DNA of 64,000 nucleotides from the NCBI RefSeq assembly GCF_022846255.1, contig NZ_AP025682.1. One strand, given 5' to 3'. Position 1 is the stretch's first letter. Each line of letters begins with the position of its first letter. Positions 17,678-56,695 of the stretch are shown here, in pieces. Under the pieces are notes generated by a model, which saw nothing but the letters and a program-made list of their open reading frames with translations, was not told where the DNA came from and did not search any database. Position numbers and translations under genes: made by a program. Origin of the DNA: Escherichia coli. Lineage in GTDB: Bacteria; Pseudomonadota; Gammaproteobacteria; Enterobacterales; Enterobacteriaceae.

Positions 17678-19215
<1,538 letters not shown>

Positions 19216-19452
19216 TTATTGTTTTATTACCAAACGGCAATCTAATCTAATCAGATTGAAAGATTTAAAAGTGTTATTTTGATCGCAAAATGAAAGATAA
19301 ATATTTTATTTTGAAAGTTGTATAAAGAAGGTAGTGAGGAGAATGAGTTGAGTTATGTAAAGTCCGTATCGGGCAGTGACTACCGCTTCCTTGTGCGGGG
19401 CGGGATGCTTTACCATACTTGCCCCTGGTTGAATCTGTTAAATGGACCCCTC

Positions 19453-20538
19453 ATGTTCAAGCGTCGTTATGTAACATTGCTTCCCCTTTTTGTGTTGCTT
19501 GCCGCCTGTAGCAGCAAGCCAAAACCTACTGAGACTGAAACGACCACCGGAACGCCGTCTGGCGGCTTCCTGCTTGAGCCGCAGCACAATGTGATGCAGA
19601 TGGGCGGTGACTTCGCCAATAACCCGAATGCCCAGCAGTTCATCGACAAAATGGTGAACAAACACGGTTTCGATCGTCAGCAGTTGCAGGAAATTCTCTC
19701 CCAGGCGAAACGTCTGGATTCGGTACTGCGGCTGATGGATAACCAGGCACCAACCACATCGGTGAAACCGCCATCAGGTCCGAACGGCGCATGGCTGCGT
19801 TATCGCAAAAAATTTATTACGCCGGACAACGTGCAGAACGGTGTGGTTTTCTGGAATCAGTATGAAGATGCGTTGAATCGCGCGTGGCAGGTGTATGGTG
19901 TACCGCCGGAAATTATCGTCGGGATTATAGGCGTTGAAACCCGCTGGGGGCGCGTGATGGGGAAAACTCGCATCCTCGATGCGCTGGCAACGCTGTCATT
20001 TAACTACCCACGCCGCGCGGAGTATTTTTCTGGCGAGCTGGAAACCTTCCTGCTGATGGCGCGCGACGAGCAGGACGATCCGCTCAATCTGAAAGGTTCC
20101 TTTGCCGGGGCGATGGGCTACGGACAGTTTATGCCGTCGTCTTACAAACAATATGCGGTAGATTTCAGCGGCGACGGGCATATCAACCTGTGGGATCCGG
20201 TTGATGCGATCGGTAGCGTGGCGAATTATTTCAAAGCGCACGGCTGGGTGAAAGGCGATCAGGTCGCGGTAATGGCAAACGGTCAGGCGCCAGGCTTGCC
20301 AAATGGCTTCAAAACCAGGTACAGCATTTCGCAGCTTGCCGCGGCAGGTTTAACGCCACAGCAGCCGCTGGGCAACCATCAACAAGCCAGCCTGCTGCGT
20401 CTGGATGTTGGCACCGGCTACCAGTACTGGTACGGTCTGCCGAACTTCTACACCATTACCCGTTATAACCACAGCACCCATTACGCAATGGCGGTCTGGC
20501 AGTTAGGACAAGCCGTGGCGCTGGCGCGCGTGCAGTAA
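19453..20538 (+). CDS. mltB: Membrane-bound lytic murein transglycosylase B (lipoprotein)
   Basis: Lipoprotein signal with lipobox LLAAC; start at MFKRRYVTLLPLF inside the longer ORF (19318..20538). Confidence 0.92.
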   Translation: MFKRRYVTLLPLFVLLAACSSKPKPTETETTTGTPSGGFLLEPQHNVMQMGGDFANNPNAQQFIDKMVNKHGFDRQQLQEILSQAKRLDSVLRLMDNQAPTTSVKPPSGPNGAWLRYRKKFITPDNVQNGVVFWNQYEDALNRAWQVYGVPPEIIVGIIGVETRWGRVMGKTRILDALATLSFNYPRRAEYFSGELETFLLMARDEQDDPLNLKGSFAGAMGYGQFMPSSYKQYAVDFSGDGHINLWDPVDAIGSVANYFKAHGWVKGDQVAVMANGQAPGLPNGFKTRYSISQLAAAGLTPQQPLGNHQQASLLRLDVGTGYQYWYGLPNFYTITRYNHSTHYAMAVWQLGQAVALARVQ

Positions 20539-20682
20539 CTATTTGCAAGAGGGGGGCGTGAGCTTCCCTCTGGCTAATCAGCTTTTTTCTGAATCCTCCT
20601 CGTAAAATTGCAACGCCAACACCATCTTCCTGACGAAAGTGTTATCTTGTCCGGCATAAATTTTTGACTGACAGAGGTTGTG

Positions 20683-21180
20683 ATGACTGACAGTGAACTG
20701 ATGCAGTTAAGCGAACAGGTTGGGCAGTCGCTGAAAGCCCGTGGCGCAACCGTAACAACTGCTGAGTCTTGTACCGGCGGTTGGGTAGCGAAAGTGATTA
20801 CCGATATTGCCGGCAGTTCCGCCTGGTTTGAACGCGGATTTGTCACCTACAGTAACGAAGCAAAAGCGCAAATGATCGGTGTACGCGAAGAGACGCTGGC
20901 GCAGCATGGCGCGGTGAGCGAACCTGTCGTGGTGGAAATGGCGATAGGCGCACTGAAAGCGGCTCGTGCTGATTACGCCGTGTCTATTAGTGGTATCGCC
21001 GGGCCGGATGGCGGCAGTGAAGAGAAGCCTGTAGGCACCGTCTGGTTTGCTTTTGCCACTGCCCGTGGTGAAGGCATTACCCGGCGGGAATGCTTCAGCG
21101 GTGACCGTGATGCGGTGCGTCGTCAGGCTACTGCGTATGCATTGCAGACCTTGTGGCAACAATTTCTACAAAACACTTGA
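20683..21180 (+). CDS. pncC: NMN amidohydrolase (CinA C-terminal domain family)
   Basis: 165 aa beginning MTDSELMQLSEQ; the longest ORF starts one GTG codon earlier at 20680; directly upstream of recA. Confidence 0.9.
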   Translation: MTDSELMQLSEQVGQSLKARGATVTTAESCTGGWVAKVITDIAGSSAWFERGFVTYSNEAKAQMIGVREETLAQHGAVSEPVVVEMAIGALKAARADYAVSISGIAGPDGGSEEKPVGTVWFAFATARGEGITRRECFSGDRDAVRRQATAYALQTLWQQFLQNT

Positions 21181-21182
21181 TA

Positions 21183-22321
<1,139 letters not shown>

Positions 22322-22340
22322 TCGTCTTGTTTGATACACA

Positions 22341-22371
22341 AGGGTCGCATCTGCGGCCCTTTTGCTTTTTT
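22341..22371 (+). terminator. Rho-independent terminator between recA and recX
   Basis: GC-rich hairpin agggtcgcatctgcggccct followed by tttgctttttt. Confidence 0.7.
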
Positions 22372-22389
22372 AAGTTGTAAGGATATGCC

Positions 22390-22890
22390 ATGACAGAATC
22401 AACATCCCGTCGCCCGGCATATGCTCGCCTGTTGGATCGTGCGGTACGCATTCTGGCGGTGCGCGATCACAGTGAGCAAGAACTGCGACGTAAACTCGCG
22501 GCACCGATTATGGGCAAAAATGGCCCGGAAGAGATTGATGCCACGGCAGAAGATTACGAGCGCGTTATTGCCTGGTGCCACGAACATGGCTATCTTGATG
22601 ACAGCCGATTTGTTGCGCGCTTTATCGCCAGCCGTAGCCGCAAAGGTTATGGACCTGCGCGTATTCGTCAGGAACTGAATCAGAAAGGTATTTCCCGCGA
22701 AGCGACAGAAAAAGCGATGCGTGAATGTGACATCGACTGGTGCGCACTGGCGCGCGATCAGGCGACGCGAAAATATGGCGAACCTTTGCCAACTGTCTTT
22801 TCAGAAAAAGTTAAGATTCAGCGTTTTCTGCTCTATCGTGGCTATCTGATGGAAGATATCCAGGATATTTGGCGAAATTTTGCCGACTGA
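22390..22890 (+). CDS. recX: RecA regulator RecX
   Basis: 166 aa immediately downstream of recA on the same strand. Confidence 0.93.
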
Positions 22891-23018
22891 ACGCATACGG
22901 GATTTTACTTCCCAGTCAAGAAAACTTATCTTATTCCCACTTTTCAGTTACCAGCCGGGCGGTTAACGACACGCAACGGCTGGTAGCGATATTTCGTTAG
23001 CTTGATTTCAGGATAATT

Positions 23019-25649
23019 ATGAGCAAGAGCACCGCTGAGATCCGTCAGGCGTTTCTCGACTTTTTCCATAGTAAGGGACATCAGGTAGTTGCCAGCAGCT
23101 CCCTGGTACCCCATAACGACCCAACTTTGTTGTTTACCAACGCCGGGATGAACCAGTTCAAGGATGTGTTCCTTGGGCTCGACAAGCGTAATTATTCCCG
23201 CGCTACCACTTCCCAACGCTGCGTGCGTGCGGGTGGTAAACACAACGACCTGGAAAACGTCGGTTACACCGCGCGTCACCATACCTTCTTCGAAATGCTG
23301 GGCAACTTCAGCTTCGGCGACTATTTCAAACACGATGCCATTCAGTTTGCATGGGAACTGCTGACCAGCGAAAAATGGTTTGCCCTGCCGAAAGAGCGTC
23401 TGTGGGTTACCGTCTATGAAAGCGACGACGAAGCCTACGAAATCTGGGAAAAAGAAGTAGGGATCCCGCGCGAACGTATTATTCGCATCGGCGATAACAA
23501 AGGTGCGCCATACGCATCTGACAACTTCTGGCAGATGGGTGACACTGGTCCGTGCGGCCCGTGCACCGAAATCTTCTACGATCACGGCGACCACATTTGG
23601 GGCGGCCCTCCGGGAAGTCCGGAAGAAGACGGCGACCGCTACATTGAGATCTGGAACATCGTCTTCATGCAGTTCAACCGCCAGGCCGATGGCACGATGG
23701 AACCGCTGCCGAAACCGTCTGTAGATACCGGTATGGGTCTGGAGCGTATTGCTGCGGTGCTGCAACACGTTAACTCTAACTATGACATCGACCTGTTCCG
23801 CACGTTGATCCAGGCGGTAGCGAAAGTCACTGGCGCGACCGATCTGAGCAATAAATCGCTGCGCGTAATCGCTGACCACATTCGTTCTTGTGCATTCCTG
23901 ATCGCGGATGGCGTAATGCCGTCCAATGAAAACCGTGGTTATGTACTGCGTCGTATCATTCGTCGCGCAGTGCGTCACGGTAATATGCTCGGCGCGAAAG
24001 AAACCTTCTTCTACAAACTGGTTGGTCCGCTGATCGACGTTATGGGCTCTGCAGGTGAAGACCTGAAACGCCAGCAGGCGCAGGTTGAGCAGGTGCTGAA
24101 GACTGAAGAAGAGCAGTTTGCCCGTACTCTGGAGCGCGGTCTGGCGCTGCTGGATGAAGAGCTGGCAAAACTTTCTGGTGATACGCTGGATGGTGAAACT
24201 GCTTTCCGCCTGTACGACACCTACGGCTTCCCGGTTGACCTGACGGCTGATGTTTGTCGTGAGCGCAACATCAAAGTTGACGAAGCTGGTTTTGACGCAG
24301 CAATGGAAGAGCAGCGTCGTCGTGCGCGCGAAGCCAGCGGCTTTGGTGCCGATTACAACGCAATGATCCGTGTTGACAGTGCATCTGAATTTAAAGGCTA
24401 TGACCATCTGGAACTGAACGGCAAAGTGACCGCGCTGTTTGTTGATGGTAAAGCGGTTGATGCCATCAATGCAGGCCAGGAAGCTGTGGTCGTGCTGGAT
24501 CAAACGCCATTCTATGCGGAATCCGGCGGTCAGGTTGGTGATAAAGGCGAACTGAAAGGCGCTAACTTCTCCTTCGCGGTGGAAGATACGCAGAAATACG
24601 GCCAGGCGATTGGTCACATCGGTAAACTTGCTGCGGGTTCTCTGAAAGTGGGCGACGCTGTGCAGGCTGATGTTGATGAGGCTCGTCGCGCCCGTATTCG
24701 TCTGAATCACTCCGCAACGCACCTGATGCACGCTGCGCTGCGCCAGGTTCTGGGTACTCATGTATCGCAGAAAGGTTCACTGGTTAACGACAAAGTGCTG
24801 CGCTTCGACTTCTCACACAACGAAGCGATGAAACCAGAAGAGATTCGTGCGGTCGAAGACCTGGTGAACGCACAGATTCGCCGTAACTTGCCGATCGAAA
24901 CCAACATCATGGATCTCGAAGCGGCAAAAGCGAAAGGTGCGATGGCACTGTTCGGCGAGAAGTATGATGAGCGCGTACGCGTGCTGAGCATGGGCGATTT
25001 CTCCACCGAGCTGTGTGGCGGTACTCACGCCAGCCGCACTGGTGATATTGGTCTGTTCCGCATCATCTCTGAATCGGGTACTGCTGCAGGCGTTCGTCGT
25101 ATCGAAGCGGTAACCGGAGAAGGCGCTATCGCCACCGTTCATGCAGACAGCGATCGCTTAAGCGAAGTCGCGCATCTGCTGAAAGGCGATAGCAATAATC
25201 TGGCTGATAAAGTGCGTTCAGTACTGGAACGTACGCGTCAGCTGGAAAAAGAGTTACAACAGCTTAAAGAACAAGCTGCCGCACAGGAGAGCGCAAATCT
25301 TTCCAGTAAGGCAATTGATGTTAATGGTGTTAAGCTGTTGGTTAGCGAGCTTAGCGGTGTTGAGCCGAAAATGTTGCGTACCATGGTTGACGATTTAAAA
25401 AATCAGCTGGGGTCGACAATTATCGTGCTGGCAACGGTAGCCGAAGGTAAGGTTTCTCTGATTGCAGGCGTATCTAAGGACGTCACAGATCGTGTGAAAG
25501 CAGGGGAACTGATTGGTATGGTCGCTCAGCAGGTGGGCGGCAAGGGTGGTGGACGTCCTGACATGGCGCAAGCCGGTGGTACGGATGCTGCGGCCTTACC
25601 TGCAGCGTTAGCCAGTGTGAAAGGCTGGGTCAGCGCGAAATTGCAATAA
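23019..25649 (+). CDS. alaS: Alanine--tRNA ligase
   Basis: 876 aa; class II aaRS catalytic core, editing-domain HxxxH motif, C-terminal DHHA1-like region. Confidence 0.97.
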
Positions 25650-25883
25650 TATAAGCGTCAGGCAATGCCGTGGACTCGCTTCACGGCATTCGCATTAACG
25701 CTATCGACAACGATAAAGTCAGGTTGAAGTTGTGTATATCGGCTAAACTTAGGTTTAACAGAATGTAATGCCATGACTGCTTAGATGTAATGTGTTTGTC
25801 ATTGCTTACTTTTTGGCGTTATATGATGGATAATGCCGGGATACAGAGAGACCCGACTCTTTTAATCTTTCAAGGAGCAAAGA

Positions 25884-26069
25884 ATGCTGATTCTGACTCG
25901 TCGAGTTGGTGAGACCCTCATGATTGGGGATGAGGTCACCGTGACAGTTTTAGGGGTAAAGGGCAACCAGGTACGTATTGGCGTAAATGCCCCGAAGGAA
26001 GTTTCTGTTCACCGTGAAGAGATCTACCAGCGTATCCAGGCTGAAAAATCCCAGCAGTCCAGTTACTAA
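25884..26069 (+). CDS. csrA: Carbon storage regulator (RNA-binding global regulator)
   Basis: 61 aa [48 protein letters not shown]; strong RBS aaggag upstream. Confidence 0.97.
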
Positions 26070-26383
26070 TCTTTCCGCGTCTCATCTTTATCGGTGAGAC
26101 GCACCCTCAAAATTTCTCTTTCACTCCATTGTCTTTTCACTTTACTCCCGTTCATTCAACTTAAGTCTCCATTTTTTGCATTACTGCTATCTGTCAGACC
26201 TCCGTTTTTCTGTTGATAAAACACTCTTTTTGACGTTTTTACAGACTAATTGAGCGTGAAGTGTGCAAACGATAAAAGTGTGGGAAAAATTGTTTGACTT
26301 ATAAGTCTCAGAAAGTAATATGTGCGCCACGCAGCGACGATGAGCGATAAACAAGTTCTTCGAAGCACTCGTAAGAGGCGTGT

Positions 26384-26476
26384 GGTGAGGTGGCCGAGAG
26401 GCTGAAGGCGCTCCCCTGCTAAGGGAGTATGCGGTCAAAAGCTGCATCCGGGGTTCGAATCCCCGCCTCACCGCCA
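26384..26476 (+). tRNA. serV: tRNA-Ser (anticodon GCU), long variable arm
   Basis: 93 nt cloverleaf ggtgaggtggccgagag...ccgcctcaccgcca with anticodon loop cugCUAag and encoded CCA. Confidence 0.93.
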
Positions 26477-26479
26477 TTT

Positions 26480-26556
26480 GCATCCGTAGCTCAGCTGGAT
26501 AGAGTACTCGGCTACGAACCGAGCGGTCGGAGGTTCGAATCCTCCCGGATGCACCA
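26480..26556 (+). tRNA. argV: tRNA-Arg (anticodon ACG), copy 1
   Basis: 77 nt gcatccgtagctcagctggatagagtactcggctACGaaccgag...ggatgcacca; 3 nt after serV. Gene names for the four copies assigned by order only. Confidence 0.9.
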
Positions 26557-26620
26557 TCTCTTACTTGATACGACTTTAGTGGCGGTATCAAAAAATCTGC
26601 AGTAAAGTAAGTTTCCCGAT

Positions 26621-26697
26621 GCATCCGTAGCTCAGCTGGATAGAGTACTCGGCTACGAACCGAGCGGTCGGAGGTTCGAATCCTCCCGGATGCACCA
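26621..26697 (+). tRNA. argY: tRNA-Arg (anticodon ACG), copy 2
   Basis: Identical 77-nt sequence to copy 1. Confidence 0.9.
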
Positions 26698-26759
26698 TCT
26701 CTTACTTGATATGGCTTTAGTAGCGATATCAATATCAGCAGTAAAATAAATTTCCCGAT

Positions 26760-26836
26760 GCATCCGTAGCTCAGCTGGATAGAGTACTCGGCTACGAACC
26801 GAGCGGTCGGAGGTTCGAATCCTCCCGGATGCACCA
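26760..26836 (+). tRNA. argZ: tRNA-Arg (anticodon ACG), copy 3
   Basis: Identical 77-nt sequence to copy 1. Confidence 0.9.
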
Positions 26837-26899
26837 TCTCTTACTTGATATGGCTTTAGTAGCGATATCAATATCAGCAGTAAAATAAATTTTTCCGAT

Positions 26900-26976
26900 G
26901 CATCCGTAGCTCAGCTGGATAGAGTACTCGGCTACGAACCGAGCGGTCGGAGGTTCGAATCCTCCCGGATGCACCA
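26900..26976 (+). tRNA. argQ: tRNA-Arg (anticodon ACG), copy 4
   Basis: Identical 77-nt sequence to copy 1. Confidence 0.9.
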
Positions 26977-27123
26977 TATTCTCCAAAAAATTTCCTTCAA
27001 AAATATCTCATTTCTAAATAACTACTTTATCCATTTCCTGAATTTTCTTCTCCTTCGCCATCAGCGACAAAATCAAGCAATTACGCTAAAGTAGCGTCAT
27101 ATTTTTCGACTTGCGAGAAGACC

Positions 27124-27690
27124 ATGTACGAGCGTTATGCTGGTTTAATTTTTGATATGGATGGCACCATCCTGGATACCGAGCCTACGCACCGTAAAGC
27201 GTGGCGCGAAGTATTAGGGCACTACGGTCTTCAGTACGATGTTCAGGCGATGATTGCGCTTAATGGTTCGCCCACCTGGCGTATTGCTCAGGCGATTATT
27301 GAGCTGAATCAGGCCGATCTCGACCCGCATGCGTTAGCGCGTGAAAAAACAGAAGCAGTAAGAAGTATGCTGCTGGATAGTGTCGAGCCGCTTCCTCTTG
27401 TTGAAGTGGTGAAAAGCTGGCATGGTCGTCGCCCAATGGCTGTAGGAACGGGGAGTGAAAGCGCCATCGCTGAGGCATTGCTGGCACACCTGGGATTACG
27501 CCGTTATTTTGACGCCGTCGTCGCTGCCGATCACGTCAAACACCATAAACCCGCGCCAGACACATTTTTGTTGTGCGCGCAGCGTATGGGCGTGCAACCG
27601 ACGCAGTGTGTGGTCTTTGAAGATGCCGATTTCGGTATTCAGGCGGCCCGTGCAGCAGGCATGGACGCCGTGGATGTTCGCTTGCTGTGA
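27124..27690 (+). CDS. yqaB: HAD-superfamily sugar-phosphate phosphatase
   Basis: 188 aa; HAD motif I (LIFDMDGT) near the N-terminus. Confidence 0.9.
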   Translation: MYERYAGLIFDMDGTILDTEPTHRKAWREVLGHYGLQYDVQAMIALNGSPTWRIAQAIIELNQADLDPHALAREKTEAVRSMLLDSVEPLPLVEVVKSWHGRRPMAVGTGSESAIAEALLAHLGLRRYFDAVVAADHVKHHKPAPDTFLLCAQRMGVQPTQCVVFEDADFGIQAARAAGMDAVDVRLL

Positions 27691-28115
27691 GTGAAGCGTT
27701 ATCGCTTTTCTCGTTGTTTGCCAGTAGTTTTCTCAGCGCTACACTATTACCCGGCAACTCCGAAGTCGTGCTGGTGGCAATGTTGCTTTCCGGGATCAGT
27801 CATCCCTGGGTTTTAGTTTTAACAGCAACAATGGGTAATAGCCTTGGAGGGTTAACTAACGTTATCCTTGGGCGTTTCTTTCCATTGCGTAAAACATCGC
27901 GCTGGCAAGAGAAAGCTACCGGCTGGCTGAAACGCTATGGTGCAGTCACACTATTATTAAGCTGGATGCCCGTGGTTGGCGATTTACTGTGTCTGTTCGC
28001 GGGATGGATGCGCATCTCCTGGGGGCCGGTAATCTTTTTTTTGTGCCTTGGTAAAGCGTTACGCTATGTTGCAGTTGCAGCAGCGACCGTTCAGGGCATG
28101 ATGTGGTGGCACTAA
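27687..28115 (+). CDS. yqaA: DedA/SNARE-associated family inner-membrane protein
   Basis: 142 aa hydrophobic protein overlapping the yqaB stop. Confidence 0.88.
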   Translation: MSEALSLFSLFASSFLSATLLPGNSEVVLVAMLLSGISHPWVLVLTATMGNSLGGLTNVILGRFFPLRKTSRWQEKATGWLKRYGAVTLLLSWMPVVGDLLCLFAGWMRISWGPVIFFLCLGKALRYVAVAAATVQGMMWWH

Positions 28116-28160
28116 TTGTAGGCCTGCACATATGGTCACCATTACAGTTATGCTAATTAA

Positions 28161-29744
<1,584 letters not shown>

Positions 29745-29753
29745 CAGAAAAGA

Positions 29754-29825
29754 AAAAGGCCACTCGTGAGTGGCCAAAATTTCATCTCTGAATTCAGGGA
29801 TGATGATAACAAATGCGCGTCTTTC
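29754..29825 (-). ncRNA. micA: Hfq-dependent small RNA MicA (SraD)
   Basis: Reverse complement reads GAAAGACGCGCATTTGTTATCATCATCCCTGAATTCAGAGATGAAATTTTGGCCACTCACGAGTGGCCTTTTT with an intrinsic terminator; in the gshA-luxS gap. Confidence 0.9.
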
Positions 29826-29893
29826 ATATACTCAGACTCGCCTGGGAACAAAGAGTTCAGAAAATTTTTAAAAAAATTACCGGAGGTGGCTAA

Positions 29894-30409
29894 ATGCCGT
29901 TGTTAGATAGCTTCACAGTCGATCATACCCGGATGGAAGCGCCTGCAGTTCGGGTGGCAAAAACAATGAACACCCCGCATGGCGACGCAATCACCGTGTT
30001 CGATCTGCGCTTCTGCGTGCCGAACAAAGAAGTGATGCCAGAAAGAGGGATCCATACCCTGGAGCACCTGTTTGCTGGTTTTATGCGTAACCATCTTAAC
30101 GGTAATGGCGTAGAGATTATCGATATCTCGCCAATGGGCTGCCGCACCGGTTTTTATATGAGTCTGATTGGTACGCCAGATGAGCAGCGTGTCGCTGATG
30201 CCTGGAAAGCGGCAATGGAAGACGTGCTGAAAGTGCAGGATCAGAATCAGATTCCGGAACTGAACGTCTACCAGTGTGGCACTTACCAGATGCACTCGTT
30301 GCAGGAAGCGCAGGATATTGCGCGTAACATTCTGGAACGTGACGTGCGCATCAACAGCAACGAAGAACTGGCGCTGCCGAAAGAGAAGTTGCAGGAACTG
30401 CACATTTAG
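29894..30409 (+). CDS. luxS: S-ribosylhomocysteine lyase (autoinducer-2 synthase)
   Basis: 171 aa; conserved HTLEHL metal-binding motif. Confidence 0.96.
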
Positions 30410-30435
30410 TCAGTAAACTATCTTCACAATTAATT

Positions 30436-30466
30436 GAAAAAAGCCAGTTCAAATGAACTGGCTTAG
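30436..30466. terminator. Hairpin terminator between convergent luxS and emrB
   Basis: Stem agccagttc/gaactggct with loop aaat; flanked by an A-run upstream, which is the T-run for minus-strand emrB. Confidence 0.65.
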
Positions 30467-30472
30467 TTGTAC

Positions 30473-32011
30473 TTAGTGCGCACCGCCTCCGCCGCCACCT
30501 GCGCCAAATGGCGGTTTAGCAAACCACACCAGCCCCAGCAAGACGAGGAATATCCCCGCCGACATCCAGAAGATCTCATTGGCAGAAATAATCAGCCCCT
30601 GATTGGTGATCTGCTGGGCAATCCAGCCAGAGGCCTGCTGTTGCGTCATCCCCAGTCCTTCCAGTTGACTGTACATCGCCTGGGCGTTCGGGTTATACGG
30701 GTTCACCGATTCGGTCAACTGTGCATGGTGCAGCGACTCGCGGTTGGTCCACATGGTCGTGGTTATCGACGTGCCGATAGACCCCGCCAGCGTTCGCGTA
30801 AAGTTGGAGAGGCTCGATGCCGCCGCCAGTCGTTCCGGTGGCAAACCGGACAGCGTAATGGTGGTCAGCGGCATAAAGAAGCAGGCCACCGCAAAACCCT
30901 GGATAAACTGTGGCCAGGCCGACGCGCCAAAATCCATACCCGGTTCAAAGGTATAGGCACGCCAGTAGAAGCAGACGGCATACATAATAAAGCTGAAGGT
31001 TACCAGTCGGCGCATATCCAGTTTATGCGCGAAGCGGCCGATAATCGGCGACAGGATCACCGGAATAATCCCTACCGGCGCAGAGGCCAGCCCTGCCCAC
31101 GTCGCCGTGTAACCGTAGACCTCCTGCAACAACTGCGGCAGCAGAACAATCGCGCCGAAGTAGAGCATATACGCGAGGCTGATACACAAGCAGCCGATGG
31201 TGAAGTTGCGCGACTTAAACAACGACAGATCGACTATCGGGTTATCGTCGGTCAGCTCCCAGACAATCAGGAAGCAGATAGCCACCACCGCCACCACGGT
31301 GAGGATGATAATTTCCTGTGATGAGAACCAGTCCAGCTCTTTACCGCGGTCGAGCATAATCTGCAGGCTGCCGATACCAATAACCAGCAGTGCCAGCCCC
31401 ACGGCATCAATCCGCCGCCGTTCGGTGCGGGTTTCACGTCCGCGCAGAGTTTGCAGTGTCATCAACACCACCGCCACGCCAATCGGCACGTTGATGAAGA
31501 ATATCCAGCCCCAGTGGTAATTATCACTGATATAACCGCCGAGGATCGGGCCGCAAATTGGCGCAACAATCACCGTCATCGACCACAACGCCAGCGCGAT
31601 CGAGCGTTTGGCTGGCGGGTAGTTATTCAGCAATAGACTTTGCGAAAGCGGGATCAGCGGCCCGGCGACAATCCCCTGAATCACGCGGAAGAAGATCAGC
31701 ATATTCAGGCTGCTGGAGACACCACACGCCCACGACGCAATAGCAAAGGCGATGGTTGACCAGAGGAACAATTTCACTTCCCCGATGCGCTTTGCCAGCC
31801 AGCCGGTAAGCGGGATCGAGATGGCATTCGCCACCCCGAAAGAAGTGATCACCCACGTTCCCTGGCTGAGCGATGAGCCCAGATTCCCGGCGATAGTGGG
31901 GATCGCCACGTTAGCAATGGTGGAGTCCAGCACCTGCATGAATGTCGCCAGTGACAGCGCAATCGTCATAATGACCAGTTGTGCGCCTTCCAGCGGTTTT
32001 TGCTGTTGCAT
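30473..32011 (-). CDS. emrB: Multidrug efflux MFS transporter, 14-TMS type
   Basis: Start at MQQQKPLEGAQL, 3 codons inside the longest ORF (30473..32020); glycine-rich C-terminus GAGGGGGGAH. Confidence 0.94.
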   Translation of the reverse strand: MQQQKPLEGAQLVIMTIALSLATFMQVLDSTIANVAIPTIAGNLGSSLSQGTWVITSFGVANAISIPLTGWLAKRIGEVKLFLWSTIAFAIASWACGVSSSLNMLIFFRVIQGIVAGPLIPLSQSLLLNNYPPAKRSIALALWSMTVIVAPICGPILGGYISDNYHWGWIFFINVPIGVAVVLMTLQTLRGRETRTERRRIDAVGLALLVIGIGSLQIMLDRGKELDWFSSQEIIILTVVAVVAICFLIVWELTDDNPIVDLSLFKSRNFTIGCLCISLAYMLYFGAIVLLPQLLQEVYGYTATWAGLASAPVGIIPVILSPIIGRFAHKLDMRRLVTFSFIMYAVCFYWRAYTFEPGMDFGASAWPQFIQGFAVACFFMPLTTITLSGLPPERLAAASSLSNFTRTLAGSIGTSITTTMWTNRESLHHAQLTESVNPYNPNAQAMYSQLEGLGMTQQQASGWIAQQITNQGLIISANEIFWMSAGIFLVLLGLVWFAKPPFGAGGGGGGAH

Positions 32012-32027
32012 CACACGCACCTCTGGA

Positions 32028-33200
32028 TTAGCCAGCGTTAGCTTTTACGATATCGTCGATCAGTTTATTGACAGGTGCCAGGCTGATTTCACGCGCGGTA
32101 CTTACCGCGACCGGTGTGGAACGTACTTTGTTTGCCAGTACCTGACCGTCACGGTTAGTGGTATTGACACTCACCAGCGTGGATAAACCGATACGCAGCG
32201 GGTATTGCTCCAGCTGTTTCTGGTCCAGTTCAATACGCACAGGCAGACGCTGAACGACTTTGATCCAGTTACCGGTGGCGTTTTGCGCCGGAAGCAGTGA
32301 GAACGCGCTACCTGTGCCCATATCCAGACCAACCACTTTACCGGTGTATTTCACATCATCGCCGTAAATATCGGTGGTGATGGTGACCGGTTGACCGATA
32401 CGCATATTGGCAATCTGCGTCTCTTTAAAGTTGGCATCCACCCACATATTGGTGGCTGGAACGACCGCCATCAGCGGCGTCGTTGGGCTAATTTGCGCCC
32501 CAGGCTGTACCGCGCGGCGGGAGACATAACCGGTCATCGGACTGACAATACGGGTACGCTCCAGCGCCAGCCAGGCGTTACGTACTTCGGTGGCAGCCTG
32601 TTGTACGGCAGGCTGATCTTCCAGTTTCGTCCCCAGAATCATCGCCTGATTGGCATTGTATTGTTGAATAGCGACGTCCAGTTGCGCCTGGGCACTGGTG
32701 ACGGCGTCGCGGGCGTGTTGCAGCTCTTCGCGACCAATCAGGTTGGCATTGCCCAGCGGCACACGGCGGTTGTAGTCGCTTTGTGCTTTCGCGAGGGCGA
32801 TTTTTTGCACCTCAATATTCGCCTGCAACTGTTTGCTGTTAATCATCAGCTGGTGGGTTTGGCGAACGCTGGAAGCCAGTGCAGTTTTTGCTTTTTCAAA
32901 CGCCTGGCGAGCATCTGTCGGGTCGAGAGTGACCAGCACGTCGCCTTCTTTTACAAAATCGGTGTTATCGGCCCAGACTTTCGTCACGCTGCCAGACACC
33001 TGAGACATAATTTGAATCTGATTCCCTGCCACGTATGCGTCATCGGTTTCTTCGAAATGACGCAGTACCAAAAACCAATAAATCCCTATCGCTACGGCAA
33101 TAATTATAAAGAGCAAGGTGAGAAGGAGGAGCAGACGCTTACGTTTGCCGCTCTTCTTTACCGGTTGCTGCGGGGTTTGAGTCTCCGCATTTGCGCTCAT
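32028..33200 (-). CDS. emrA: Multidrug efflux periplasmic adaptor (HlyD family)
   Basis: Start at MSANAETQTP inside the longer ORF (32028..33212); single N-terminal TM then coiled-coil. Confidence 0.94.
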   Translation of the reverse strand: MSANAETQTPQQPVKKSGKRKRLLLLLTLLFIIIAVAIGIYWFLVLRHFEETDDAYVAGNQIQIMSQVSGSVTKVWADNTDFVKEGDVLVTLDPTDARQAFEKAKTALASSVRQTHQLMINSKQLQANIEVQKIALAKAQSDYNRRVPLGNANLIGREELQHARDAVTSAQAQLDVAIQQYNANQAMILGTKLEDQPAVQQAATEVRNAWLALERTRIVSPMTGYVSRRAVQPGAQISPTTPLMAVVPATNMWVDANFKETQIANMRIGQPVTITTDIYGDDVKYTGKVVGLDMGTGSAFSLLPAQNATGNWIKVVQRLPVRIELDQKQLEQYPLRIGLSTLVSVNTTNRDGQVLANKVRSTPVAVSTAREISLAPVNKLIDDIVKANAG

Positions 33201-33326
33201 ATTGTTCTCCACGATCTTCTTAACTCATCGGCTGAGCCGACCTGCTTGCCAAAAAGGCCAGCATGTTACGATGCTGGCCGGTTATTTTTTCTTTTATAAA
33301 TCTGGATTTTTGAGCGAGATGACGCG

Positions 33327-33857
33327 TTAGCTCATCGCTTCGAGAACCACACCGTCCTGTTCCATCTGGTCGAGGCGGGAGAGCAATTTGCGGGTGATTT
33401 GCTCGAGCTGGTCTTTTTCTGTTGTGCTGAGCGCGGACCAGAGTTGATGCAGGCAGTTATGCTGCGGCGGTAAAACCTCGCGCAAAAACTCGTGACCTTT
33501 TTCCGTTAATTGCAGATGCAGGCAGCGGCGATCGTTATCGCTTTCACGACGTTCGATCCAACCGCGTTTTTCCAGTTCATCGGCAATACGCGTCGCGTTG
33601 GTACGGGATGATCCAAGTGCACAACTCAATTCAGAAGGCTGAATACTGTGGTTTTCCTGAGACTCCAGCGTAATCAACGCCATAAACAACGTCTCGTTAA
33701 TCCCCTGAGCCTTCAGCATTTTATTGCGGTTTTCCAGCAGCTTGCTTTGCATATGCATGCAAAGACGGGTCAGAAGGATCTCCTGATAAGGAAAATCTTC
33801 GTGGCGGCTGGCGCGAAATTTTAGCATTTGTTCAATGGGCGTAAACGAACTATCCAT
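33327..33857 (-). CDS. mprA: MarR-family repressor of emrAB
   Basis: 176 aa; winged-helix MarR fold; first gene of the emrRAB operon (also called emrR). Confidence 0.93.
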
Positions 33858-33947
33858 TTGGGTATGACCTCATTAATTTCAGCCGATATAGTAACGACAG
33901 TGACAAATAAAGTAAATGTATTGTTTTAGAAAAATGATTCTTGTGGG

Positions 33948-34283
33948 TTATATAATCGCCATCACTTTCCAGGCGAGCCCATAGGCCAGCGCACTAAGCA
34001 GTGTTGGGATGATAATGCTGCGTGTTTTATAGAAACTGGCACCCAGTACCGCGAAGCCGACCAGTGTGGGCACGAAACGGCGTGTATCGTGCATCACTTC
34101 TGGTGCGGTAGAGACAACCAGCAGAGCGCATATCGAGGCGATGCCAATGGTGTCGAGCAAAATACCTACCGCGCCACGTTTGGTTGGGCGGGCATTACCC
34201 ACACGCAGGCGCAGCGGCAGATAGCGGAAGCAATAATTCGCCGCGCCAACCAGTAACCCAAGCAGCAGAACCTCATAGCTCAT
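33948..34283 (-). CDS. ygaH: L-valine exporter small subunit (AzlD-like)
   Basis: 111 aa hydrophobic; overlaps the ygaZ stop. Confidence 0.9.
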
Positions 34284-35010
34284 CGGGCGCTCCTTGCCAG
34301 AATGCCTGGATTAACGCAGTGAGGCAGCCACAGACAATGCCTGCCAGAATGGCGACGGGAATAGAAAATAGCGTTACGCCTGCAAGGGCACCAACTAACG
34401 CTGCGGTAACGCAAAGAGATTGTTTGCGCTGGAAAGAGGCGAGCAGGAAACTCATAAAGAGTGCCGGAAGCATAAAACCTAATGCTGCTTCAACGGCGGG
34501 ATAACCTTGCAGCAAGCCGCTGCCGGAGAATGCCCCTATTACCGTACCAAATACCCACGATGACCATGAACTGAAGGCAATGCCGATCATCCAGTTTTCG
34601 CTCCAGCGGCGATTATTGCGTACCAGTTTTGCGGTTGCGGCGGCAAAAACCTCATCCGTCAGGCCAAACGCCCACAGGGCGGTTTTCGATTTTTGCAGAC
34701 GCTGAATAATACGGCTACGCAGTGACGGGCCATACAAAACATGGCGAACATCCATTGCCATGACGGTCAGTGCAGCAACCCACAAACTACTCCCGGCTGC
34801 CAGCATCGCGGTAATGACGAACTGGCTCGCGCCTGCATAAATGATGCAGGAGAAAAAAACGCTTTCGAGAGGAGAGAATCCCAGACGGGTCGCATTCAGA
34901 CCGAACGCAAAGGCCACCGGAATATAACTAATAACAATCGGTAAACTGTCTTTGCATCCTTCCATGAAGGTCGCCGAACCAGGAGCAGGCTGTGGAGTAG
35001 GGCTTTCCAT
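34273..35010 (-). CDS. ygaZ: L-valine exporter large subunit (AzlC-like)
   Basis: 245 aa polytopic membrane protein upstream of ygaH. Confidence 0.9.
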
Positions 35011-35133
35011 AGAGTGTACGCTTAACGATTGTTAATATTATAAATAGACTGAATGAATATCTTAACCTTATCAGACTGATGGGCTTCTTAACACCCTTAT
35101 AAGTGTAAAGCCACGAAAACGGTTGCTGATTGC

Positions 35134-36318
35134 TTAATTTGCGGCTTCCTGACGATGAAAACCTCGCCACCAGACCAGTAAGTTAACCAGGGCAATCGTC
35201 GCGCCAGCCAGACACACGCCAGCCCAACCGCCATGTTGCCAGGCTGAGGCTGAAATTAGCGAACCAGCGGCACCGCCAATAAAGTAGCTGGTCATGTAAC
35301 CTGCGGTCAGGCGATTACGCGCATCAGGGTGTATTCGATAAATTACCGTCTGGTTAGTGATATGCACGCCCTGCACGGTGAGGTCCAGCACCAGGATGCC
35401 GATAATCAGCGCCAGTACGGAAGTGTGACCAAACCAGATTGCCAGCCATGAAAGTAACAGCAGCAGCAGACCGAAAGTTGTGGTGTGGTGCGATTTGCCC
35501 TTATCGGCAAAACCGCCCGCCGGACGAGCGCCCAACGCTCCGGCAGCTCCCGCAAGCCCAAACAGACCAATTACACCATCGCTGTAGTTAAAAGGTGGAG
35601 CGGCAAGCAAAAAGGCCATTGAGGTCCAGAGAATGCTGAAGTTGGCAAAGGTCAGGCAGCCCAGCAACGCGCGGGTGCGCAGGATTTTATCGCTGATAAA
35701 CATGCTGAAAACAGAACCTAGCAACTGTGGGTAGTTGAGGTGGGTTTCTGATTTCATTTGTGGCAGACCACGCCATAACGCCAGCGCCATCAGTGCCATT
35801 AATACCGAAGCGACCCAAAAGACAGTTCGCCAGCCACCGAGACTCGCCAGCAATCCGGCAACGGTCCGTGCCAGCAAGATCCCCAACAGCAGCCCGCTCA
35901 TAATGGTGCCGACCACTTTGCCGCGTTTGTCCGGTGAAGCCAGCGTCGCTGCCAGCGGAACCAGAATTTGTGCCACGACTGAGAATAAACCGGTTAATGC
36001 CGTACCGAGGAGCATCATCGCCAGCGACTGACTGCTGGCAGTGATTAACATGCCGCCTGCTGCCAGTAAGGTCATCGAGACAATCAGGCGGCGGCGTTCA
36101 AACATATCACCGAGGGGAACAAGAAACAGCAGACCTGCGGCATAGCCCAACTGCGCGGCGGTAACAATAAAGCCTGCCGAACTGGCGGAAAGGGAAAAGT
36201 TACGCGCGATGGTGTCGAGCAATGGCTGGGCGTAATAGTTACTGGCTACCGCCAGACCGGTGGCGATAGACATCAGCACGATCAGCGCCGGGCTAATCTC
36301 ATGATTAGGTTTAGTCAT
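35134..36318 (-). CDS. ygaY: MFS transporter, apparently intact
   Basis: Uninterrupted 394-aa ORF with about 12 predicted hydrophobic segments. Confidence 0.85.
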   Translation of the reverse strand: MTKPNHEISPALIVLMSIATGLAVASNYYAQPLLDTIARNFSLSASSAGFIVTAAQLGYAAGLLFLVPLGDMFERRRLIVSMTLLAAGGMLITASSQSLAMMLLGTALTGLFSVVAQILVPLAATLASPDKRGKVVGTIMSGLLLGILLARTVAGLLASLGGWRTVFWVASVLMALMALALWRGLPQMKSETHLNYPQLLGSVFSMFISDKILRTRALLGCLTFANFSILWTSMAFLLAAPPFNYSDGVIGLFGLAGAAGALGARPAGGFADKGKSHHTTTFGLLLLLLSWLAIWFGHTSVLALIIGILVLDLTVQGVHITNQTVIYRIHPDARNRLTAGYMTSYFIGGAAGSLISASAWQHGGWAGVCLAGATIALVNLLVWWRGFHRQEAAN

Positions 36319-36419: not shown

Positions 36420-36500
36420 GTAGGTATGATAAGACGCGCCAGCGTCGCATCAGGCATTGTGTACAGAGCGGCGGATGAGGCAAAAACGCCTTATCCGCCC
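36420..36500. repeat. REP/BIME palindromic units in the ygaY-proX gap
   Basis: gataagacgcgccagcgtcgcatcaggc and ggcggatgaggcaaaaacgccttatccgcc palindromes. Confidence 0.7.
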
Positions 36501-56332: not shown

Positions 56333-56695
56333 TGGTGGAGCTGGCGGGAGTTGAACCCGCGTCCGAAATTCCTACATCCTCGGTACTACATGCTTAGTCA
56401 GTCTTTACATTCGCTTGCCAGCTGCGGACGGACACGCCACTAACAAACTAGCCTGATTAAGTTTTAACGCTTCAACCCCAGGCAGGGCTTCCACGCGATC
56501 TCTTTTGGGTTTGACCTCTCTTGATCCCCGTCCTAAGAGCGGAGGCTAGGGAGAGAGGGCTCTAAGCAGGTTATTAAGCTGCTAAAGCGTAGTTTTCGTC
56601 GTTTGCGACTATTTTTTGCGGCTTTTTACGAGGCCAACCGCCCCTCGGCATGCACCTTGGGTTTCGCAAATCCCGTCGAATCCAGAATCAGCCCC
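56333..56695 (-). ncRNA. ssrA: tmRNA (transfer-messenger RNA, SsrA)
   Basis: Reverse complement begins GGGGCTGATTCTGGATTCGACGGGATTTGCGAAACCCAAGGTGCATGCCGAGGGGCGG and ends ...GGTTCAACTCCCGCCAGCTCCACCA; 363 nt; tag-coding region present. Confidence 0.97.

Follow-up and report, generated by a model that had tools for sequence, protein, structure and literature searches.

A rare element-free form of the Escherichia coli serV-argVYZQ tRNA operon and a covarying hairpin in its spacers

Gene content and boundaries of the locus

Five tRNA genes lie head to tail on the plus strand between csrA and yqaB in the 64,000-nt stretch of E. coli DNA analysed here (the window). ARAGORN called a tRNA-Ser gene with the anticodon GCT at 26384-26476 and four tRNA-Arg genes with the anticodon ACG at 26480-26556, 26621-26697, 26760-26836 and 26900-26976, which are exactly the positions at which an earlier note on this DNA had placed serV and four identical tRNA-Arg(ACG) genes. 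In the Rfam search (RF00005), each of the four Arg genes scored 67.1 bits and the Ser gene 56.8 bits, above the gathering score of 29. The same calls bear out the view that the array is made of tRNA genes and is not a repeat array of another kind. The Ser gene, serV, is 93 nt long including CCA, the four Arg genes share a single 77-nt sequence, and the CCA end is encoded in all five genes. The Arg copies occupy, in order, the argV, argY, argZ and argQ positions. Copy 1 follows serV after three nucleotides (TTT), and the three Arg-Arg spacers measure 64, 62 and 63 nt. A repeat finder likewise reported a repeat family of four members, whose periods are 141, 139 and 140. The regular direct repeats and short intervening sequences resemble a CRISPR array. 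This candidate was rejected, as each repeat is a tRNA gene of 77 nt, and the spacers, instead of being unique, are homologous (82-97% identity) and conserved between genera.

Among the open reading frames of the window, alaS (23019-25649) and csrA (25884-26069) are the upstream neighbours of the array, while yqaB (27124-27690), yqaA and gshA follow downstream. A matching gene order is found in the RefSeq annotation of the K-12, Combat2C1 and Nissle loci. All five tRNAs are identical to their K-12 counterparts (tRNA-Ser3 and four of tRNA-Arg2), serV included, and the promoter and leader stretch agrees with K-12 at 103 of 104 positions. The features by which the operon is recognised, i.e. a Ser(GCU) gene followed by TTT and tandem Arg(ACG) genes, the chromosomal context and sequence identity to K-12, are thus all present. 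Because synteny and the identity of the tRNA and promoter-leader sequences to K-12 point the same way, the locus is very probably a structurally rare version of the chromosomal serV-argVYZQ tRNA operon of E. coli. The name serV-argVYZQ is in use in the literature (PMC10100675, PMC13170351). The operon is already known, a textbook case and ordinary, and its current understanding is not overturned by our analysis.

A consensus scan detected a sigma-70 promoter-like sequence on the plus strand at 26294-26321, consisting of TTGACT and TAATAT separated by 16 nt and followed by the GC-rich discriminator GTGCGCCACGC. The discriminator suggests growth-rate and stringent control of the operon. In K-12, the serV leader has been mapped to 52-56 nt (Mohanty et al., PMC7049720). 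A transcription start 7-11 nt past the -10 hexamer would produce a leader of the same length, and we therefore place the precursor 5′ leader at about 26328-26383, its start being approximate. On the other side of the array, a 3′ trailer of 147 nt (26977-27123) extends to the start codon of yqaB. It contains a weak terminator-like hairpin, ACGCTAAAGTAGCGT, at 27083-27097 followed by the T-run CATATTTTTC, as judged by consensus scan and folding. This hairpin is only a candidate, since the region contains a single terminator-like site where chance would give 1.9. Since matches to the promoter and terminator consensus are no commoner than chance in the region, both elements fit the operon and remain unproven. 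Co-transcription of the five genes from the serV promoter is predicted. The promoter scan called no promoter-like site in the spacers. Their TTGATA and TAAAAT motifs resemble -35 and -10 hexamers, yet they are 29 nt apart, and an internal spacer promoter was rejected. A lambda boxA/nut-like antitermination site was discarded as well: the spacer start TCTCTTA matches at six of eight positions by eye and is not conserved between genera.

Three open reading frames on the minus strand (26187-26837, 26653-26871 and 26792-26986, together spanning 26187-26986) had been dismissed in the earlier note as artefacts of the repetition. We came to the same conclusion. All three were recovered at precisely these coordinates, run antisense to the tRNA genes and gave no Pfam family at E <= 0.1. 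None passes as protein-coding, as they lack Pfam homology, overlap tRNA genes and encode internally repeated peptides. The 216-residue product of the longest contains an identical 25-residue peptide twice, which results from reading through two tRNA copies. For annotation purposes, the three antisense reading frames are to be discarded.

Copy number, RtT-like elements and array length

Copy-number variation of the tRNA between strains had been attributed to the recombination-prone, direct-repeat architecture of the array. Our survey of public genomes agrees with both parts of this statement. The 77-nt Arg gene matched 21,500 times in 5,425 of 5,426 complete E. coli genomes; the median was four per genome and the range one to nine. 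Among 60 evenly sampled genomes, 52 contained four matches, four contained three, two contained two, and one genome each had five and six, so that eight of the 60 departed from four. The length of the locus is variable, too. When the two unique flanks were joined as a query against 59 evenly sampled genomes, the interval from serV to yqaB fell into at least nine length classes between 728 and 1,553 nt. The main classes were the K-12 type at about 1,143 nt (24 of 59), one of about 874 nt (12 genomes) and one of about 913 nt (7 genomes), and the 740-nt interval of the window occurred in none of the 59. By its identical repeats, homologous spacers and copy polymorphism, the locus qualifies as a tandem gene array, for which we infer a recombination mechanism. 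Unequal homologous recombination between the identical 77-nt genes, or slippage between them, would add and remove Arg copies.

Direct inspection of annotated loci with two, four and five Arg genes revealed a second source of variation. Strain C4 has two Arg genes accompanied by two RtT-like elements. Of the loci with four Arg genes, that of O157 AR-0430 contains one element, that of K-12 three, and the window none. Five Arg genes are combined with one element in ATCC 25922 and with five in Z1323HEC0108. Array length is specific to the strain, and most length differences are due to RtT-like elements and not to tRNA genes. The comparison with K-12 illustrates this. Position, gene order and tRNA sequences are alike and the spacers are orthologous, whereas the Arg-Arg spacers of K-12 measure 198, 62 and 198 nt and its trailer 280 nt, against 64, 62, 63 and 147 nt in the window. 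As a result, the serV-to-yqaB interval amounts to 1,142 nt in K-12 and to 740 nt here.

The elements of K-12 are 133-135 nt long, follow directly past the CCA of argV, argZ and argQ, and each close with a second copy of the 3′ terminus of the tRNA, ATCCTCCCGGATGCACCA. Against the Rfam RtT family (RF00391), they scored 32.9, 31 and 22.8 bits (E = 2.6e-4 to 0.08; gathering score 45), and at the gathering threshold the K-12 arg-linked elements were not called RtT. One weak BLAST match also coincides with an annotated RtT sRNA. As their scores stay below the threshold, we only call them RtT-like, i.e. probable relatives, and claim no family membership. In the literature on RtT-like elements, rttR is mentioned in a preprint. 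A related arrangement is known from the tyrTV-rtT (tpr) operon, which shares tandem identical tRNA genes with the window. The tyrT locus reportedly carries repeated units of about 130-180 nt, the final part of which copies the 3′ terminus of the tRNA. With regard to such units, the likeness is to the arg locus of other strains, the window being without one.

Elements of this kind are the rule in E. coli. At least 5,353 of the 5,426 complete genomes hold one or more full-length elements of about 133 nt after an Arg gene, and elements were also found in Citrobacter, Klebsiella, Enterobacter and Pluralibacter. In the window, a BLAST search with the three K-12 elements matched nothing beyond tRNA ends of 18-19 nt, and Rfam RtT gave no match at E <= 1. 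The strain Nissle 1917 proved informative in this respect. It has the same three short spacers and, in addition, a single element of 133 nt past the last Arg gene, with a perfect direct repeat of 26 nt, ATCCTCCCGGATGCACCATATTCTCC, on its two sides. The window corresponds exactly to the Nissle sequence minus the element and minus one copy of the repeat. The remaining copy, which comprises the 3′ terminus of the tRNA and 8 further nucleotides and marks the empty element site, is located at 26959-26984 on the plus strand, as seen by comparison of the window with Nissle and K-12.

Identical 77-mers at a period of about 140 nt are prone to mis-assembly from short reads, and the nearest complete genome is 99.2% identical over 18 kb. 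An element-free array of four copies could hence be suspected to be a collapsed or otherwise mis-resolved repeat. Such an artefact is extremely improbable, given that at least 31 independent complete genomes, among them 536, F11, Combat2C1, MS 200-1 and ECONIH2, have exactly this architecture and match the 1,061-nt locus of the window in one ungapped piece at 99.5-99.7% identity. Moreover, the order of the copies is anchored by differences among the spacers, and at the junction past the last gene the 26-nt repeat is present as one clean copy. The form with four copies and no element is real but rare, accounting for roughly 0.6-1.3% of genomes. In our unrooted comparison, a deletion between the 26-nt direct repeats appears most likely to have produced it, and the route would have been recombination or slippage between these repeats. 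Loss is the more economical assumption because nearly all E. coli and four other genera carry elements. Alternatively, an element may never have been inserted at this site; the choice between the two histories turns on phylogeny.

A covarying hairpin in the spacers

With the elements absent, the three Arg-Arg spacers of the window are short and similar to each other. Spacer 1 (26557-26620, 64 nt) contains the hairpin TTGATAC...GTATCAA at 26565-26591, followed by AAAAAATCTGCAGTAAAGTAAGTTTCCCGAT. In spacer 2 (26698-26759, 62 nt), the hairpin TTGATAT-G-GC-TTTAGTA-GC-G-ATATCAA at 26706-26732 is embedded in AU-rich single-stranded flanks, and spacer 3 (26837-26899, 63 nt) forms its hairpin at 26845-26871; all lie on the plus strand. 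The earlier note had described the spacers as near-identical and 62-64 bp long. While the lengths are correct and spacers 2 and 3 share 97% identity, spacer 1 agrees with the other two at only 82-84%. A similar reservation applies to the spacer consensus proposed there. Its ggctttagt portion misses one further G-to-A exchange in spacer 1 (...gataCgActttagtGgcgGtatcaa; gAc in place of gGc), and its end, tttcccgat, does not hold for spacer 3, which ends in tttttccgat.

Folded individually, the spacers are unremarkable. The z-scores of spacers 1 to 3 are -0.6, -2.0 and -1.8, the centroid fold of spacer 2 has a free energy of -11.3 kcal/mol (z = -1.98), and the inner stem of spacer 1 contains an A·C mismatch in both the window and Nissle. 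Given the weak single-sequence thermodynamics, we base the argument for the hairpin on covariation. When one genome per species was scanned for the pattern, 89 loci were recovered in which Arg(ACG) genes stand in tandem. The arrangement serV-(Arg)n with three to five Arg genes occurs in Escherichia, Salmonella, Citrobacter, Klebsiella, Enterobacter, Atlantibacter, Leclercia and Kosakonia. One type of first spacer (...AAAATCTGCAGTAAAGTAAGTTTCCCGAT) is common to Escherichia, Salmonella, Citrobacter and Klebsiella grimontii, indicating that the array predates these genera and is not the product of recent amplification. Most spacers of 57-68 nt have a hairpin about 8 nt past the CCA, the sequence of which differs between genera.

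When 95 distinct Enterobacteriaceae spacers were aligned with MAFFT by sequence alone, RNAalifold detected a helix of seven pairs with compensatory changes at all seven. Pairing was preserved in 93.7% of the stem cells against 79.9 ± 0.8 after shuffling, double changes affected 122 cells (44 ± 6.6 in shuffles), and the count of extra pair types was 19 (14.1 ± 1.1 in shuffles). Each of these values was reached by none of 500 shuffles, though the many close relatives in the alignment inflate the shuffle statistics. More reliance can be placed on the control with a slid partner and on the counts of pair types. When the 3′ partner was slid by 1-3 columns, pairing fell to 10-59%. The stem cells, which form 21 stem clusters, comprise 554 Watson-Crick pairs, 68 G·U pairs and 11 A·C combinations. 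The large excess of G·U over A·C indicates that pairing takes place in the sense-strand RNA and not in DNA. Two outer pairs of the E. coli hairpin (TT/AA) are outside the consensus helix, as MAFFT placed gaps differently between groups. In summary, the hairpin of each spacer is maintained by compensatory substitutions across the Enterobacteriaceae. Between the hairpin and the next tRNA, the alignment contains a conserved motif, AGTA..A...CCCGAT.

Rather than serving a purpose, the spacers might be neutral filler and the hairpin a decaying, duplicated terminator without present function. From this neutral standpoint, RNase P together with RNase E cutting anywhere in AU-rich RNA would suffice to separate the tRNAs. 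The top of the spacer hairpin, GCTTTAGTAGC, does resemble the terminator-like hairpin of the trailer at 27083-27097, GCTAAAGTAGC, the weak folding z-scores would suit a remnant, and some Enterobacteriaceae have Arg-Arg spacers of 29-36 nt without a hairpin, which argues that it is dispensable. Pairing has, however, been kept through sequence turnover, as documented by the pairing rate, the compensatory changes at every pair, the number of stem clusters and the G·U excess reported above. In addition, position-specific spacer types in several genera mark the spacers as old and not as recent copies. We thus regard a functionless remnant as rather unlikely. Even less convincing is a role of the inverted repeat at the DNA level, for instance as the site of a dimeric protein, a recombination site or a cruciform site. 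The arms TTGATAT/ATATCAA form a near-perfect palindrome, and the locus is a recombination hot spot. Nevertheless, the arms are wholly different between genera while their complementarity is retained, which is unlike a conserved protein site, the asymmetry of 68 G·U to 11 A·C is expected only in a sense-strand transcript, and the spacers lack promoter-like sites. We consider a DNA-level function very improbable.

The Rfam search over positions 24000-29000 (E <= 1) assigned no family to the spacers. Matches to Plastid-ycf2, psbI-rps4 and HPnc0260 were far below the gathering scores and were rejected; those to the plastid families are antisense on the tRNA genes, and that to HPnc0260 is mostly on the AT-rich trailer. 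In the literature searched, neither the spacers nor a covarying hairpin were found described. We tentatively propose, with somewhat less than even confidence, that the hairpin and the motif on its 3′ side, (A)GCAGTAAAG..CCCGAT, constitute an undescribed cis-acting RNA module of the Enterobacteriaceae. Such an RNA module may guide cleavage by RNase E or RNase P, insulate the folding of the adjacent identical tRNAs, or give rise to a stable spacer-derived RNA with its own function. In the last case, 3′ETS-leuZ, reportedly a spacer-derived regulatory RNA, might offer a possible analogy for the arg spacers. If the proposed module is real, the element-free array with its short spacers in the window is the minimal natural form of the operon.

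Precursor processing and tRNA dosage

Identical tandem tRNAs, short AU-rich spacers and a polycistronic precursor are also characteristic of glyVXY, metZWV, leuQPV and valVW, in which respects these operons are like the window. Such precursors are separated by RNase E through direct entry (PMC3985628, PMC4191395) or by RNase P (PMC2190699, PMC7049720). A point of difference is the covarying spacer hairpin of serV-arg, of which the papers searched make no mention and which is matched by no Rfam family. Extending this scheme to the present locus, the five genes would give rise to one precursor with a leader of 52-56 nt. RNase E would cut in the AU-rich single-stranded stretches that flank each spacer hairpin, and minimal RN|WUU matches are present at spacer positions 51-54. 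RNase P would cleave every tRNA at its 5′ end, position -1 being U, and exonucleases would trim the 3′ ends to the encoded CCA. Finally, TadA would deaminate A34 of tRNA-Arg to inosine.

Direct entry of RNase E into tRNA precursors requires two adjacent unpaired regions (PMC3985628, PMC4191395). The spacer hairpin would arrange the spacer into two unpaired handholds for RNase E, and it would allow adjacent identical tRNAs to fold independently of each other without mispairing. We give slightly less than even weight to this putative dual role in setting up unpaired segments and preventing tRNA mispairing; more generally, the hairpin is putatively an aid to precursor processing. The supplements of the Salmonella TIER-seq study, an RNase E map, contain no serV or argVYZQ entries, and the literature searched yielded no processing data on the serV-arg spacers.

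The operon provides the whole cellular supply of tRNA-Arg(ICG), the decoder of the most-used Arg codons CGU, CGC and CGA. In addition, tRNA-Arg(ICG) serves the essential deaminase TadA as its tRNA substrate. The dosage of these genes has measurable consequences: deletion of argYZQ lowered tRNA-Arg2 16-fold, duplication of the operon raised it 2.4-fold, and both interventions altered TadA editing, mRNA editing included (PMC13170351). In view of these dosage effects on tRNA-Arg2 and editing, the natural variation between two and five copies could affect translation and editing. What our study adds to the known operon is a rare allele without elements and a spacer hairpin that covaries, both of them modest contributions. 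The conserved spacer hairpin provides a small clue to the processing of identical tRNAs that are arranged in arrays.

Relatedness of the window and its other RNA genes

Among complete E. coli genomes, the best match to positions 18000-36000 of the window showed only 99.2% identity over 18 kb; the collection has no close complete genome for the source lineage. The closest matches were to strains of B2 type by phylogroup, namely LF82, 536 and Nissle. Elsewhere in the window, Rfam matches taken at gathering level revealed three further RNAs on the minus strand, namely the sRNA MicA (29754-29825), the REP-derived naRNA4 (CssrE; 36423-36500) and the tmRNA ssrA with the tag ANDENYALAA (56333-56695).

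RtT-like elements and spacers of unusual length

At least 5,353 of the 5,426 E. coli genomes carry RtT-like elements, which also occur in several other genera. The elements lie directly 3′ of tRNA-Arg genes at positions 1989-2122, 2403-2537 and 2678-2810 of the K-12 locus (L001) and at about 1209-1341 of the Nissle locus (L092). At these loci, the elements are 133-135 nt long and each ends in a duplication of the tRNA 3′ end; in Nissle, a perfect 26-nt direct repeat lies on both sides of the element. Compared with Rfam RtT, they scored below threshold, and RefSeq carries no annotation for them (annotation under the matches: 'none').

The third Arg-Arg spacer of O157 (L095) and Escherichia sp. 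E1V33 (L054) measures 101-102 nt and belongs to neither the short (62-64 nt) nor the long (about 198 nt) type. It may contain a partial RtT-like element, and its length accounts for the serV-to-yqaB interval class of approx. 913 nt. In various Enterobacteriaceae (L003, L005, L016, L021, L022, L027 and L043), some Arg-Arg spacers of only 29-36 nt lack the hairpin. Thus, although the spacer hairpin is common, not every spacer of an array has one.

Hairpins bordering the operon and a possible origin of the spacers

Just 3′ of the csrA stop codon, an 8-bp hairpin (GCGTCTCA...TGAGACGC; 26077-26102) lacks a downstream T-run and may represent the csrA 3′ end structure. Upstream of yqaB, a terminator-like hairpin (ACGCTAAAGTAGCGT) is followed by a T-run, the two together spanning 27083-27107. 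The top of this trailer hairpin is nearly the same as that of the spacer hairpin (GCTTTAGTAGC), a sequence similarity suggesting that the spacers originated as duplicated copies of the trailer.
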